From Thermosulfurimonas dismutans (GTDB lineage: Bacteria > Desulfobacterota > Thermodesulfobacteria > Thermodesulfobacteriales > Thermodesulfobacteriaceae): DNA of 32,000 nucleotides. Where the stretch lies: NCBI RefSeq assembly GCF_001652585.1, contig NZ_LWLG01000001.1:360001-392000 (forward strand), written 5' to 3'. Both the position numbers and the translations under genes were made by a program. Each line of letters starts with the position of its first letter. Position 1 is the stretch's first letter. Positions 2 to 31,998 of this stretch are shown here, piece by piece. The notes under the pieces are model-generated. The model saw nothing but the letters and a program-made list of their open reading frames with translations. It ran no database searches and was not told where the DNA came from.

Positions 2-235
2 GGGTTGCATGCCCCTGGACCATACCTTTTGATAAAAGGCCCCTGGTTTTTCCTAGGGGTACAGGAAGCCCTGAGATATTTTCCACCGGTTTGGGCTGGT
101 ATTTTATTTCCGGCTTTAGGGATCTTGCTCTATGTGCTGGTTAAAATGGATAGTCTAAGGAAGTGGGTCTTCGGAGGCCTCCTAGTCTGGACAGGGGTTT
201 ATATGTTCTTCATGGTTTACGGGCTTTTGCGATGA
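2..235 (+). CDS. C-terminal fragment of a cytochrome b-like integral membrane subunit (gene begins upstream of the window)
   Basis: The frame is open from the window edge and encodes hydrophobic helices. KGPWFFLGVQEALRYFP resembles the PEWYF-type motif of cytochrome b / b6f subunit IV C-terminal domains. The stop TGA at 233-235 overlaps ATG 232-234 of the next gene (ATGA coupling). Confidence 0.45.
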   Translation, partial: GLHAPGPYLLIKGPWFFLGVQEALRYFPPVWAGILFPALGILLYVLVKMDSLRKWVFGGLLVWTGVYMFFMVYGLLR

Positions 236-1479
236 GAAATCATTGGTGGTTTTTAGTTCTAATGCTGGCCATGTTTGCGGCTCTGATCCAAGAGTTGCGT
301 TTCAAACGCGCCGACAAGGTCTATACCTTAGCCTCCGGTCGGGTGGACATGTGTCTTGCCTGCCACAAGGAGGCTCCTGGGAAAGCCCATGCCCGAGGGG
401 TAGTGGGGTGTGCGGACTGTCATTTGGGCGACCCCCTAACGGTAGAGAAGAAGCGGGCCCACCGGGGGATGGTGAAAAATCCGGGAGACCTTCGGGTAGC
501 GGATCAGACCTGTGGTCGGCCGGAATGCCATCCGGGCTATGCCGAAAGGGTCAAAAAGAGCCTTATGGCCACCAACCGAGGTATTATTACTACTCTCCGT
601 TATTACTGGGGGGAAATCGAAGACTTTCACGCTGAAGCTTCGGTGGAGACCCTAATGAAGACCGACGAGACCTCACCGGCCTTGGACTATTTCCGCAAAC
701 TCTGTGGCACCTGCCACCTGTGGCTCCCCAAGGAGAAGCTTCCGGGATTTCTTAAGAAAAAGGGCGGAGGTTGCGTGGCCTGCCATTTGATTCCGGGTAA
801 GAATAAGGATAAGAAGGTACATTCCATACTTACCCGAAAGATCCCGCTTGAAAATTGCGTGCGCTGTCACAACCGGAGCGGACGTATCGGATTGTCTTAC
901 CAGGGGCTTTATGAAGACGAACAATACGGAGCGCCTATAGAGGAAGGCGAATTCGCGGCCGAAGAACTCGAAGACGGACGTTTTGTGGCCCGTATACCAC
1001 CGGATGTACATTTTAAGGCCGGTATGGTTTGCGTGGACTGTCACACCCAGAACGAGACCATGGGAGACGGCAAGGCCTACGCCCACTTTGAAGAATCGCT
1101 TGAGATCACCTGCGAGGCTTGCCACGAGGGGACAGGCCGAACCCGAAAGGGCACGCTCCTCACCAACCTCAAAGTAAAAGACGGAAAAATTTACTGGCAG
1201 GCCAAACTCAGTGGAAAAGAACTTGAAGTTAAAAGGCCGGATCCGGTGGCCTGCCGACATCCGGTACACCGCAGGCTCACCTGTGAGAGTTGTCACGACC
1301 AGCGGGTTCCCCAGTGCTTCGGTTGCCATGTGAGGCGGGATCCCCGAGAAAAACAGCTTGACAAGTTGTCTTTTAAGGAGACCCCCGGCCTCTGGGAGGA
1401 GTTCCGGAGCTATATGCGGGTTGAGGTGCCCACCCTCGGAGTTCGAGAAGACAAGGTAGTGATTTTGGTCCCAGGATGA
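232..1479 (+). CDS. Multihaem cytochrome c with 9 CxxCH motifs plus one CGRPECH (CX4CH) motif and an N-terminal signal/anchor helix
   Basis: Motifs seen are CLACH, CADCH, CGTCH, CVACH, CVRCH, CVDCH, CEACH, CESCH and CFGCH. The hydrophobic N-terminus is MRNHWWFLVLMLAMFAALIQ. I prefer the ATG at 232 (ATGA overlap with the upstream stop) to the ORF-track start at 163. The ORF ends at TGA 1477-1479, which may be recoded (see findings). Confidence 0.85.
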   Translation: MRNHWWFLVLMLAMFAALIQELRFKRADKVYTLASGRVDMCLACHKEAPGKAHARGVVGCADCHLGDPLTVEKKRAHRGMVKNPGDLRVADQTCGRPECHPGYAERVKKSLMATNRGIITTLRYYWGEIEDFHAEASVETLMKTDETSPALDYFRKLCGTCHLWLPKEKLPGFLKKKGGGCVACHLIPGKNKDKKVHSILTRKIPLENCVRCHNRSGRIGLSYQGLYEDEQYGAPIEEGEFAAEELEDGRFVARIPPDVHFKAGMVCVDCHTQNETMGDGKAYAHFEESLEITCEACHEGTGRTRKGTLLTNLKVKDGKIYWQAKLSGKELEVKRPDPVACRHPVHRRLTCESCHDQRVPQCFGCHVRRDPREKQLDKLSFKETPGLWEEFRSYMRVEVPTLGVREDKVVILVPG

Positions 1480-1490
1480 CAGGACTTCAT

Positions 1491-1527
1491 TTCCTTTCTT
1501 TCCCCGGAGGGGAAGTTGGAGAAGGAA
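1491..1527 (+). promoter_or_regulatory. Candidate SECIS-like stem-loop 11 nt downstream of in-frame UGA 1477-1479
   Basis: The left arm UUCCUUUCUUUCCCC (1491-1505) pairs with GGGGAAG-uu-GGAG-aa-GGAA (1509-1527). That gives about 15 bp including 3 G.U pairs, two 2-nt bulges and a G-rich apical loop. Pairing was done by hand only. Confidence 0.35.
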
Positions 1528-1902
1528 TTTAAACGCATCACCTGGTCTTTCATGTATCCCCACAATACCGGCAAGGCCCGTACTTGTAAGGACTGTCACC
1601 AGTCAGCCAAGACCGTGGGCCTGGGTTACGGTAGCCTTACCTACTTAGGAAAGGGTCGCTTTCGATTCACGCCGGCTGAGGCTCCCTCGGAGTTGCTCGA
1701 AATTGAACACGGGCTTTCGGCGGTGGTGGATCTTTCGGGGAAACCCTTGGTGAACTTCCGCCCCGGGGTGAGAGGCTTTAATGGGAAGGAAATTCGACAA
1801 ATTTTAAGGGTTGGACTCTGCCTCTCGTGTCACAGAGACTTTTCCGATCCCGTTATGCGGAACTGGCCTCCCAGGAAGCCCTGTCCGGTTTTCAAGGAGT
1901 AG
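1516..1902 (+). CDS. Dihaem cytochrome c module (CKDCH, CLSCH), in the same frame as the upstream multihaem cytochrome and possibly its C-terminus
   Basis: There are two CxxCH motifs. The ORF-track start is a TTG with GGAGG at 1507-1511. The product has no signal peptide of its own. Codons 1480-1515 are open and in frame with 232-1479. Confidence 0.6.
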   Translation: MEKEFKRITWSFMYPHNTGKARTCKDCHQSAKTVGLGYGSLTYLGKGRFRFTPAEAPSELLEIEHGLSAVVDLSGKPLVNFRPGVRGFNGKEIRQILRVGLCLSCHRDFSDPVMRNWPPRKPCPVFKE

Positions 1903-9237: not shown

Positions 9238-11181
9238 TTAAATAACTTCTATTTCACCTTGGACGTATTTCTGGCGGCAGATGGTAACGAGCTCGAAGAG
9301 GATAGAGATAACCTCTTCGAATATGGGATAGAGATTTTCTTCTAGCCACTTTATTTTTTCCTCGGTAGAAACTATATGGTTAGAGCTATCCATGAAGCGA
9401 TCCAGTTCGTTGACCATCTCATGCAGTCTACGATGGGGTTCCTTCACTTTTTCTACCAGAGAAGCCAACGTGGGATCTTCAGGTTCCCAGACCGAAAGCA
9501 CCCGGCCGAGGTAACAGCGTGTGGGGTCCCTTTCGACTTGGGGCGAACTACCTGTTAGAACGGCTTCTATCACGCGGCATCTCCACATGATGTGTCCAAG
9601 GATCGCTTCTTGAAGGGCCAGGGCACAGGCTACGCCTTTAACTTCCAAGTGAGTTTCTCGACTCGAAAAGAGCCGATTTATCCTTTCGAGTTCTTCTGTG
9701 CTTTCTTTTATACCTTTAAGGGTAACATACAGTTCTTGGGCCATCTGATTAAAGTCCTCGGAAATACGGGTGAGGTTTTCGGATTTCTGGGAAAGGCTGT
9801 CTACTTCTTGAGATACCTGGCCAAGATTGCTGGAGATTTCGGAGACCACGGCTGTTTGTTCCTCTACTGCCGAGGCAATGGTATTGGCATGTTCGTTGAG
9901 CTCTATCACCGTGCGGGTAATCTCATCCGTAGAGGCCACGGCTTCCTCCACGCCCTGCTGAATACGCTGGATAGTTTCTGTGATTCGTTTGGTGGCTTCA
10001 GCGGTCTGACGGGCCAACTCCTTGACCTCATTGGCCACTACCGCGAAGCCTTTGCCGGCTTCGCCGGCCCGAGCGGCCTCAATGGTAGCGTTCAGCGCAA
10101 GCAGATTGGTCTGTTCCGCGATGGTCTGAATGGTCTCTACGATGGAGCCTATCTCTCGGGCTTGCTCTCCTAAACGCTTGACCACCGCGTCTGTGGCCTC
10201 GGCTTTGGTTCGGGCCTCACCAGTAGCCGCAGCCGTGCGGGTTACACTTTCGGAGATCTCATTAATGGCTTGCGTGAGTTCTTCCGCCGAGCGGGTTACG
10301 GCTTCTACCGATTCCCGGGTGGTGATTACCGCCTGAGCGATATCTTCCGAGAAGCGGTTGAGTTTTTCGGATTCAGACCTTAGCCGATCCGCACTTTTAC
10401 GCACGGTGTCTTCAGAGGCCTTTTGGACTTCGTTTTGGATCTTTAAGGCCTGAAGAGTTCGGGAGATAAAGTTGGCCAGCCCCATAGCTGCTTCAGAAAG
10501 GATCTTGACCTCTGTAAGTTGACTCTTAGGAAACTCCACGCGCATATCTCCGGTTCCAATGTGTCGGAAGACCTCGGTGATCATGGCTAGTGGTCTAATA
10601 ACCAATCTCCTGGTGGTTAAGAATACGACCAACAAAATGATAAAAAATATACCTAAAATAACCAATAAAGATGTTTCTGTGCGCTTTTGATTTCTTAAGG
10701 AGACTTCTTCTATGGTTTTTACTACAGAATTGCTTATTTCAAGGAGTTTTAAATTATTATTTAGAATATATTCCATGTGTCTTTCGAAGTCGGCGTCTCC
10801 AGGGGAAAGAGTTAAAAGTATTTCAATTTCTTTCTTGAAAATTTTCCAAAAGGCGAAGTTTTTACGGAGGGCCTCTTGAACGGAGGTCTCTTTTTCGAGG
10901 CTTGAGGCTGCTTTTAACTTGTGGAGGCTTTCATCGTAAAGTTTTAAGGTAGTCCTTATACGTTTTCGGTTTTCCAAAGAAGGGGTTCTTCGATATTCTA
11001 AGATTTCCTTGGTCATCCTCTGGGTGAGCATACGTTGCCTGCCAGAGAGGTTTATTAAAGTGGCTAGTTCGCCCTGATTCCTAAATAGGTACCAGACAAT
11101 GCCTACCGAAAGAAGTTGCAAAAATAACAAAACTCCCAAACTTAATGATAACAGGGATTGTAGAGAAAGACTTTTTCGCAT
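9238..11181 (-). CDS. Methyl-accepting chemotaxis protein with a periplasmic PilJ/NarX-type sensor, HAMP, MA signalling domain and C-terminal CZB (chemoreceptor zinc-binding) domain
   Basis: Two TM helices flank a region containing [15 protein letters not shown]. The conserved signalling hairpin [34 protein letters not shown] is present. The C-terminal HIMW...CYLGR...HRRLH pattern indicates CZB. AAGGAGG lies 5 nt upstream of the ATG. Confidence 0.9.
9989..10089 (-). repeat. Copy A of a 101-nt near-identical segment shared by the two MCP genes (inverted relative to copy B)
   Basis: By hand alignment, the reverse complement of 9989-10089 matches 19323-19423 at 99 of 101 positions. Confidence 0.9.
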
Positions 11182-18653: not shown

Positions 18654-20579
18654 ATGCAACCTGAAAAAACCATTTTCCTATCTTTGTTTCTGGCAGTAGT
18701 TTCAGCCTTTGTCCCTGTAATAGGAAAGTTTACAGAGTTATGGGCTTATATTTTTCCATTCTTGACGTTGATTTTGGTAGGTTTTGCTTTTCTAAAGTTT
18801 AGGACCATGAAGACCCTTTGTCAGAAAGCCGCTCAAAGGATGGAGGGGTACACACATTTAGAGTTCAAGGATGTGGTCTGTGGAGAGGAATTGCCGGGAG
18901 TTTTGGCTCCCATGGCAGACAAAGTAGCCAACTTTGCGGCTCTAGTTTCAGCCCAGCTTAACACTTTGGCCCAACAGGCTAGGGTGCTTTCGGAGGTCAA
19001 AGACTTTGTAGGGGATTCCGCCGAAAAAATAATGACCTATGCCGAGAAGACGGACCAGTTCGCTTTGGATATGTTGAATTCTGCTTCTCGGACCGCTCAG
19101 GATGTAGAAACTCTAACCCAGGCTCTTACAGATTTAAATACCGCGGCCTCTGAAATCGCAAGTAGCATCGCCCATACTGCACAAAAGACTTCCGAGGCCC
19201 GAGAGAAGGCCATCCAGGCCAAGGAAACCATTGAGAAACTTCTTGAAAGTTCGGAAAAGATAGGTTCAGTAGCTCAGGTTATAAACGATATTGCGGATCA
19301 GACCAATCTTTTAGCCCTTAATGCTACCATTGAGGCCGCTCGGGCCGGCGAGGCCGGCAAAGGCTTCGCGGTAGTGGCCAATGAGGTCAAGGAGTTGGCC
19401 CGTCAGACCGCCGAAGCCACCAAGGAAATTACCCATATTATAGAAAACATCCAGGCCGATACCCGCCGGGCCGTAGAGGCTGTGGAAAGCATTACTGGTG
19501 GGGTGCTCGAGATAGACGATTTAGCCAATACCATTGCCTCGGCCAGTGAAGAACAAACGGCTACCATCGCAGACATTACGCAAAACATCGAAAACGTAAA
19601 AGCCTTGGTGGAAAAGACTTACCAGCAGGCCGAGACCTTAATGAAGCATACCAGAGATTTTGGAGAACTCAGAAATCTTCTTGAGACCTCCAGGGTCTCA
19701 GTGGAAAGCATCGCTCTAGAAAATAATGTGCTCCTTTCTGGTCTAGTGTTGGAAGATCACTTTTTTGAAAAGGCTCAGAAGTGTCTGGATGAACACATCC
19801 ATCTTAAGATTATCCTTTTAAAGCATTACGAGTGGGTAAACGAAGTCATAAACGGCCTGGTACTCGGGAAACCTCCGGAGGTGCAGACGGATCCTAATTT
19901 GTGTGCTTTGGGTGAGTTCCTGAAGTCTTATAGGCCCGATGCAAAGACCGAGCCTATTCTTGAGGAACTTCTTCCTCTGCATGAGGAACTTCATCGTTCG
20001 GCCATTGAGATCCAAAAGAGGCTTGCGGCTAATGACCGGGAGGGGGCGTTATCCTATTTCGAGAAAGAGACGCTTCCGATCTTTTTCCGGATATCTGAAC
20101 TTTTTAATCGCTGGATAACAGCCGTGGGGGGGAGGGTAGAAGAGGTCTCCTTGGTTCGCAAGGAGACCCAGGAGGAATTTATGAGCTGGGGGCCTCAGCT
20201 TGAAATCGGTATCAGGGAGATAGATCAGCAACACCGAAAGTTGGTCTCGATGGTGAACGCCCTCTATGGCGCCATTAAGGAAGGTAAAGACAAAGAGTCC
20301 CTGGGCGAACTATTGAACGAGCTGGTCTCTTACACCGACTATCACTTTAAGACCGAGGAATATTACTTCGATAAGTTCGGCTATCCGGAAGGTGAGATTC
20401 ACAAGGAAATTCATCGTAAGCTTACGCAAAAAGTGTTAGACTTCAAGGAGAAGTTTGACCGAGGTGAGGCTACCATTTCCTACGACCTGCTTAACTTTCT
20501 CAAGGACTGGTTGGTTAACCACATCGGTAAAACCGACAAAAAGTACGGGCCTTTCCTTAAGGAAAAAGGGGTTAAGTAG
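18654..20579 (+). CDS. Methyl-accepting chemotaxis protein with a TM hairpin, MA domain, CZB domain and C-terminal hemerythrin domain
   Basis: Two closely spaced TM helices with almost no periplasmic loop, then the MA core [34 protein letters not shown]. The CZB pattern is HYEW...CALGEF...HEELH. The hemerythrin ligand set is [20 protein letters not shown] and [14 protein letters not shown] lies upstream of the ATG. Confidence 0.9.
19323..19423 (+). repeat. Copy B of the 101-nt near-identical segment shared by the two MCP genes
   Basis: Matches the reverse complement of 9989-10089 at 99/101 positions. The two mismatches are both synonymous third-position changes. Confidence 0.9.
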
Positions 20580-31139: not shown

Positions 31140-31998
31140 TGTTATCCCTACCCACAAGTTTTTCTCGGTTCAGCCAGGCCTCGGCGCTTTTTTTGGCCAG
31201 GGCCCTTACCCGGGCGATGTAGGCCGTGCGTTCGGCCACTGAAATGGCCCCTCGGGCGTCCAGCAAGTTGAAGATATGGGAGCACTTGATGGTGCAGTCG
31301 TATCCCGGAAGAGCCAGGCCCAGTTCAAGGAGCCGAAGGCCCTCTTTCTCGTACCGGTCAAAGAGTTCGTGCAACATTTCTACGTCGGCCTCTTCGAAGT
31401 TGAAAATAGAATATTCCACTTCGGCCCGGTGATAAAGATCGCCATAGGTGAACTGTTCGTTCCAGCGAAGCTCAAAGACGTTTTCTACCCCTTGAAGGAA
31501 CATAGCCAGTCGTTCAAGACCATAGGTGATCTCTACCGTGACCGGTTTACAGTCGAAACCGCCTATCTGCTGGAAGTAAGTAAACTGGGTAATCTCCATA
31601 CCGTCCAGCCAGACCTCCCAGCCCAGGCCCCAGGCTCCGAGAGTGGGACTCTCCCAGTCGTCCTCCACGAACCTTATGTCATGGTCCTTGGGGTCTATGC
31701 CAAGGGCCTTGAGACTTTCGAGATAGGTTTCTTGTATGTCATCTGGAGAGGGTTTTATGACCACCTGGTACTGGAAATAGTGTTGCAGGCGATTGGGGTT
31801 TTCGCCATAACGGCCATCAGTTGGTCGGCGGCAAGGTTCGGGATAGGCCGCAGCCCAGGGCTCCGGACCAAGAGCCCGCAGAAAGGTGGCCGGGTGAAAA
31901 GTTCCGGCTCCTACTTCCATGTCATAGGGCTGAAGAATAAGACAGCCTTTTTCCGCCCAGAAACGGTTAAGAGTGGCTATCAGCTCCTGAAAATACAT
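31132..31998 (-). CDS. glyQ: Glycine--tRNA ligase alpha subunit
   Basis: [17 protein letters not shown]...[14 protein letters not shown] is the canonical GlyQ N-terminus. The gene is complete at 288 aa, with its start 3 nt from the window end. Confidence 0.95.

Follow-up and report, generated by a model that had tools for sequence, protein, structure and literature searches.

A window of 32,000 nucleotides (nt) from Thermosulfurimonas dismutans (contig NZ_LWLG01000001.1, positions 360,001 to 392,000) opens with a multihaem cytochrome c gene whose reading frame is broken by one UGA codon, which raises the question of whether this codon ends the protein or is read as selenocysteine (Sec). The gene, like all features of this locus, lies on the plus strand. 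Its ATG at position 232 of the window overlaps the stop of the upstream gene as ATGA (232-235), the frame stays open until TGA 1477-1479, and it then continues to TAG 1900-1902, with the TGA as the sole interruption of 232-1902. A sequence-only reading of this DNA had joined the open reading frames (ORFs) 232-1479 and 1516-1902, which share one frame, across the single UGA into a product of about 556 amino acids (aa) with 11 CxxCH motifs and one CX4CH motif, and had proposed that the UGA encodes Sec. The structure of the gene is exactly as described there: the read-through product has 556 aa, 11 CxxCH motifs and one Cx4CH motif (CGRPECH). From the codons found at this site in homologues, the open frames behind it and the comparison of the downstream hairpin, it is very probable that UGA 1477-1479 is a Sec codon (U416) within a single gene for a 12-haem, ExtM-like cytochrome.

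The putative full-length protein starts with a hydrophobic segment that is predicted to act as a signal-anchor (MRNHWWFLVLMLAMFAALIQEL, 232-297) and that corresponds to a helix of residues 3-23 in the AlphaFold model of P0007, the closest full-length Cys homologue, which was modelled in place of the window protein. The UGA falls within the motif VPG-U-QDF, and the peptide that spans it reads VVILVPG-X-QDFISFLSPEGK. Behind it, the C-terminal 140 codons (1480-1899) would be translated only upon decoding of the UGA; they contain two CxxCH motifs, CKDCH (nt 1585-1599) and CLSCH (nt 1819-1833), as well as His444 and Cys551 (nt 1882-1884). A further Cys outside the haem motifs, Cys341 (1252-1254), precedes the UGA. 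The translation of the downstream piece, read directly, has no hydrophobic N-terminus, in line with the earlier statement that this piece carries two CxxCH motifs and lacks a signal peptide. In Pfam, the fused protein matches generic multihaem cytochrome domains only. Of the 21 other genes in the window, seven have UGA as their normal stop, as do several of the orthologues at their own ends; since UGA serves as an ordinary stop elsewhere, recoding would be site-specific and not the sign of a changed genetic code. Other TGA-split frames in the window, at 31240 (+), 4190 (-) and 25821 (-), were rejected as spurious, as they lie inside glyQ, uvrB and dnaE in another frame or on the opposite strand.

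A protein search with the fused sequence returned two populations of homologues. In the first, from Thermosulfurimonas, Thermodesulfatator and related metagenome-assembled genomes (MAGs), the proteins are about 415 aa long and all end in ...VPG; the second comprises proteins of 567-600 aa, mostly from Desulfobulbales, which cover 96-100% of the fused query. Every full-length homologue contains TPGCQD, and in the alignment its Cys falls exactly on the UGA column. The comparison was extended to the DNA of 80 other species genomes, giving 81 genes with that of the window: the codon at this column is TGA in 44 of them (window included), TGC in 24 and TGT in 13, and never TAA or TAG (without the window, TGA 43 and TGC/TGT 37). 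All 44 TGA genes keep 140-180 open in-frame codons past the TGA, compared with about 143 in the Cys forms, and the TGA-bearing orthologues span about 50-80% protein identity. None of the 12 haem motifs varies across the alignment, and this holds for the two behind the UGA too; His444 is likewise invariant, and Cys341 and Cys551 are kept in 81 and 79 of the 81 sequences, respectively. Gene callers split the gene in every TGA-bearing genome (e.g. into 414 aa and 141 aa in locus L081, from Thermosulfurimonas sp. F29). Judging from the aligned frames, the homologues of about 415 aa that end in VPG are evidently the same gene, cut short by the gene callers at the conserved TGA, beyond which the dihaem module follows in frame. 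The sequence-only reading had asked whether homologues run on with Cys or Sec at this position, or end at VPG while the dihaem module is exported separately; the full-length forms are contiguous, and the dihaem module was found as a separate exported protein in no homologue.

A neighbour-joining tree of the 81 sequences resolves three clades. Group A comprises 14 Sec sequences of the Thermodesulfobacteria type, among them the window, which is nearest to Thermosulfurimonas MAGs, with 78-80% identity. Group B holds 30 Sec sequences from 'Deltaproteobacteria' MAGs, one SEEP-SRB2 genome included, together with a single Cys sequence. The third clade is monophyletic and contains 36 Cys sequences from Desulfobulbales, including cable bacteria and Desulfogranum japonicum. 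Several Cys-type proteins of 567-581 aa are named 'amino acid ABC transporter substrate-binding protein' at NCBI, a name that clashes with their cytochrome-only Pfam domains and full-length alignment.

Downstream of the UGA, the proposed hairpin resembling a selenocysteine insertion sequence (SECIS) does exist (1486-1526). The minimum free energy structure pairs 1486-1488 with 1524-1526, 1490-1494 with 1518-1522 and 1498-1504 with 1509-1515 around a CGGA loop at 1505-1508, and the two lower stems are less conserved than the upper one. Among the 14 sequences of group A, 92.9% of the cells of the 7-bp upper stem are paired, with compensatory UA>CG and CG>AU/GC changes and five cells changed on both sides; the covariation score is higher than in all 500 column shuffles and than in shifted registers. 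The 30 sequences of group B form a different hairpin, 6 nt nearer the UGA, in which pair 21-29 is CG in 15 sequences, UA in 15 and broken in none, coupling a synonymous Phe change to a Glu/Gly change. GGA is common to both loops, which start at +29 in group A (CGGA) and at +23 in group B (UGGAU). The bSECISearch model expects a distance of about 16-37 nt between UGA and loop and a G in the apical loop, and the loops of both clades lie within that range. The hairpin is absent in the Cys forms: the segment from +10 to +48 folds at -10.2 kcal/mol in Sec forms versus -7.8 kcal/mol in Cys forms (Mann-Whitney p = 2.5e-4), despite the lower GC content of the Sec forms. The one Cys (TGT) form nested in group B, L034 (7113-7175 of that locus), has a decayed hairpin with GGATACAGG replacing GGATGGAGG, and its position in the tree marks it as an apparent natural reversion from Sec to Cys. 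In the proposed mechanism, UGA 1477-1479 would be decoded as Sec by SelB and tRNA-Sec, directed by the conserved upper stem-loop of the mRNA (1498-1515), which lies 19 nt past the UGA and has a G-rich apical loop.

Several observations count against decoding as Sec. The hairpin of the window folds at -15.5 kcal/mol, which is unexceptional (z = 0.13; 105 of 200 dinucleotide shuffles fold as well), so that the part of the earlier claim that appealed to its geometry gains significance only through comparative evidence. Here, the covariation comes from few independent compensatory events among related sequences, the two Sec clades carry the hairpin in different registers, with the loop at +29 in group A and at +23 in group B, and an Rfam scan of 1300-1700 matched no SECIS family. 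Additionally, none of selA, selB, selD and tRNA-Sec was found in the 32 kb window or the fetched loci, the tRNA-Sec search covering the window and 27 loci; the rest of the window carries housekeeping genes. The Sec capacity of this genome is thus argued from relatives: tRNA-Sec is present in T. indicus (PMC12439589), and T. dismutans is listed as a representative with a predicted Sec-type MccSep (PMC13510729).

Two of these points bear on the possibility that the UGA is read through without Sec machinery, by a near-cognate Cys or Trp tRNA or some other recoding, to give a full-length but selenium-free protein. Both the unexceptional fold of the hairpin and the indirect case for the machinery would fit such an event, yet the column holds strictly TGA or Cys codons, a position-specific hairpin with a G-containing loop accompanies TGA and is lost with TGY, the relatives have tRNA-Sec and other predicted selenoproteins, and inefficient readthrough would be unable to maintain the TGA state across 44 species; selenium-free readthrough is accordingly rated highly improbable. 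A genuine stop would instead yield two polypeptides, a decahaem protein of 415 aa and a separately initiated dihaem protein of 128-140 aa, the latter from TTG 1516 by way of GGAGG 1507-1511, which the sequence-only reading had listed as a possible Shine-Dalgarno sequence. The annotated split in every TGA-bearing genome and the GGAGG in front of this TTG speak for two proteins, but the restart does not survive comparison. The column of TTG 1516 holds TTG or GTG in only three of 14 close orthologues and GTT, GTA, CTC, CTT or GTC in 10 of the 13 besides the window, and in most of group B it is TGG. The 12 codons between UGA and TTG encode QDF[IV][ST]xLSxxGx and align with the Cys forms; with a variation of 0.19, 0.12 and 0.40 at the three codon positions, mostly in the third, they evidently evolve as coding sequence. 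GGAGG 1507-1511 itself forms part of the loop and 3' stem of the hairpin and belongs to that element, not to a conserved ribosome-binding site. Furthermore, the two invariant haem motifs of the downstream piece must mature in the periplasm, although that piece lacks a signal peptide, and the stop is always TGA, never TAA or TAG, which together make separate translation highly improbable. A recent nonsense mutation or a sequencing or assembly error, two further alternatives named at the outset, would have nothing in its favour beyond the bare presence of an in-frame stop, and is barely conceivable given that 43 other independently assembled species genomes have TGA at the same column, with intact and conserved frames downstream.

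With UGA 1477-1479 read as Sec, the identity of the protein can be considered over its full length. Its best NCBIfam match is ExtM (NF040943), at 279.1 bits versus an equivalog cut-off of 800, and it is not an ExtM equivalog. A superfamily profile search of 1.84 billion cluster representatives returned 1,719 relatives at E <= 0.001. One of them, P0199, passes the ExtM cut-off with 826 bits, and therefore the cut-off test discriminates. This equivalog reads TPGCQTF at the site and is 32% identical to the window protein over residues 39-543, straight across the UGA; ExtM proper thus represents a Cys form of the superfamily. The end-to-end homology and the 12 haem-binding motifs place the window protein in the ExtM-like 12-haem superfamily, and the alignment points to a distant full-length homologue of Geobacter ExtM (GSU2935). 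Both proteins have 12 haem-binding motifs and PG-[C/U]-Q at the same position, with Cys in ExtM where the window protein would have Sec, and the genes of both are linked to those for a Rieske protein and a cytochrome b, which are ExtO and ExtP in the case of ExtM and the genes upstream in the case of the window. In Geobacter, ExtM is encoded in the cluster extHIJKLMNOPQS, together with ExtO and ExtP and beside ExtKL (PMC5877670). Unlike in the ext cluster, none of the genes for ExtKL, ExtN, ExtS, ExtH and ExtI adjoins the window gene, as examined in L081 and the window. No description of ExtM as a selenoprotein was found in the literature searched, the scope of which did not extend to two selenoprotein papers by Haft that may mention a Sec form. 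Searches of PDB by sequence and profile brought up only a local resemblance to NrfA (residues about 259-339), with no match for the Sec domain, and no solved structure was found to resemble the AlphaFold model of P0007.

Selenocysteine is already established in other multihaem cytochromes. MccSep/ExtKL (GSU2937-2936) is a pentahaem Sec polysulfide reductase, in which Sec comes from a beta-rich C-terminal domain, adjoins the His/Cys-ligated haem 2 and attacks polysulfide (Sci Adv 2026, PMC13510729). Like the window gene, it encodes a multihaem cytochrome with one in-frame UGA and has been mis-annotated as two ORFs; both families have Cys-type homologues and a SECIS-like hairpin, and both occur in sulfur-metabolising Desulfobacterota, Thermosulfurimonas included. 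MccSep differs from the window protein in having five haems, a soluble form and the motif DGUP, compared with 12 haems, a predicted membrane anchor and VPGUQDF. In the window family, a beta-rich domain is likewise predicted around the homologous Cys, and there are extra invariant cysteines. A 2026 inventory lists ExtKL/MccSep (NF040886), the GSU2204 family (NF041027) and the octahaem tetrathionate reductase family Otr (TIGR04315) as cytochrome-type Sec families, and the family of the window protein was not found in it as searched (PMC13188914). The window protein has no detectable sequence relationship to MccSep, with no match at E <= 0.01 to NF040886, nor to NF041027 or TIGR04315, which likewise comprise c-type cytochromes or CXXCH proteins with Sec forms. 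The VPGUxxT thioredoxin-like selenoprotein family (NF041383) was also considered and gave no match at E <= 0.01, the shared VPGU string being a coincidence.

What Sec416 may do is suggested by the variation at its site across the superfamily. Of 150 representatives, 42 have Cys and about 92 have Met ('PGM') directly behind the conserved Pro-Gly, and two proteins stop exactly at this site. Sec416 would thus stand in for a Cys that the Cys-type relatives, among them ExtM, keep without exception and that gives way to Met in the rest of the superfamily. This alternation of Cys/Sec with Met at a strictly conserved site is the pattern expected of a distal haem ligand. In addition, only seven non-motif histidines are invariant, compared with twelve haems, so several haems need ligands other than His; the two other invariant methionines, M112 and M277, give way to His in some members. 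Cys341 is not kept in the ExtM equivalog, and its column in the superfamily is often His. The alternation of Cys/Sec with Met suggests a residue that either ligates a haem axially or acts in catalysis next to one, and the most likely place for Sec416 is at a haem iron, as its distal axial ligand or as a neighbouring nucleophile. A tentative proposal is that Sec416 provides the distal axial ligand to one of the twelve haems, which would give a natural His/selenolate-ligated haem; such ligation is known, to our knowledge, only as an artificial product in engineered P450s. Alternatively, by analogy with MccSep, Sec416 may act as a nucleophile beside a haem that is perhaps ligated by Cys341 or Cys551. 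His/Cys-ligated haems occur in TsdA, SoxAX, DsrJ and haem 2 of MccSep, and the window protein likewise places a conserved non-motif Cys/Sec in a c-type cytochrome of a sulfur-cycling organism; such ligation is hypothetical here, and no sequence homology of these proteins to the window protein was found. Against a ligand role it must be set that the role is read from the Cys/Met alternation in a hidden Markov model alignment and that the structure model is haem-free. The model of P0007 (predicted local distance difference test, pLDDT, 82.9; predicted template modelling score, pTM, 0.79) places the Cys in a beta-rich domain of residues about 368-449.

Two variants of the superfamily can be mentioned as side observations. 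P0245 and P0263 have Gly at the site (PGGQ); should the site serve as a haem ligand, the equivalent haem of these two proteins would lack that ligand. Many of the Met-type members (e.g. P0153, P0158, P0162-P0166, P0171 and P0173-P0176) are about 900 aa long, and their 12-haem region begins only at about residue 320, hence a large N-terminal extension.

The genes upstream indicate the complex to which the cytochrome may belong. Positions 2-235 are the 3' end of a cytochrome b gene, whose stop TGA 233-235 overlaps ATG 232 and of which 2-163 are 57% identical by tblastn to the cytochrome b of Thermosulfurimonas sp. F29 (L081, 9213-10004). The window itself shows only this 3' end with its overlapping stop and start. 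In L081, the gene order is Rieske, cytochrome b and then this cytochrome gene, and a Rieske gene and a cytochrome b gene also lie directly upstream in all 11 group-A loci that extend far enough. In this lineage (class Thermodesulfobacteria), the recoded gene would be the third of a Rieske/cytochrome b/multihaem cytochrome c operon, a place from which the product, a c-type cytochrome of 556 residues that is anchored in the membrane by its N-terminus and binds 12 haems covalently, is predicted to serve as periplasmic haem subunit in a bc-type complex that oxidises quinol (or reduces quinone). Rieske/cytochrome b complexes with multihaem cytochrome c subunits are found in Geobacter (Cbc-type complexes) and in anammox bacteria (bc complexes), and the gene order here, with its overlapping stop and start codons, is comparable to theirs; we know of no described complex of this type with a Sec-containing haem subunit. 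What speaks against a general bc-complex role is that the group-B and Cys-type loci show no Rieske/cytochrome b linkage within 10 kb and have unrelated neighbourhoods, so that this role may be lineage-specific.

In group B, a tRNA-Gly(GCC) gene precedes the start of the match by about 100-400 nt, on the strand of the Sec-type cytochrome gene, in every locus scanned (L014, L015, L017, L022, L027, L031, L035, L036 at 9830-9904, L040, L042, L050, L068 and L072), a conserved micro-synteny among otherwise unrelated neighbours. Elsewhere in the window, 18654-20579 encodes a methyl-accepting chemotaxis protein with C-terminal hemerythrin and CZB zinc-binding domains, and 9238-11181 (-) a second one with PilJ and CZB domains.

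For the organisms concerned, the reading of UGA 1477-1479 as Sec means that at least 44 species genomes, cultured Thermodesulfatator and Thermosulfurimonas included, carry the gene mis-split into a 'hypothetical' cytochrome of about 415 aa and an orphan ORF of about 140 aa. As the true product would have 12 haems and not 10, haem counts would be wrong for sulfur-disproportionating and sulfate-reducing thermophiles and for SEEP-SRB2-type syntrophs, and models of their electron transfer likewise. The finding also adds a multihaem cytochrome selenoprotein family that is absent from the 2026 inventory as searched (PMC13188914), of a kind already established by MccSep. The electron donor of MccSep is still unidentified (PMC13510729), and ExtM is encoded directly beside MccSep. 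The conserved Cys/Sec suggests that ExtM-type proteins are more than electron wires, and its alternation with Met raises the possibility of a selenolate at the haem iron in a bc-type respiratory complex. If true, the selenolate-ligated haem would tune one haem of the Rieske/cytochrome b complex, or would catalyse on a sulfur or selenium substrate.

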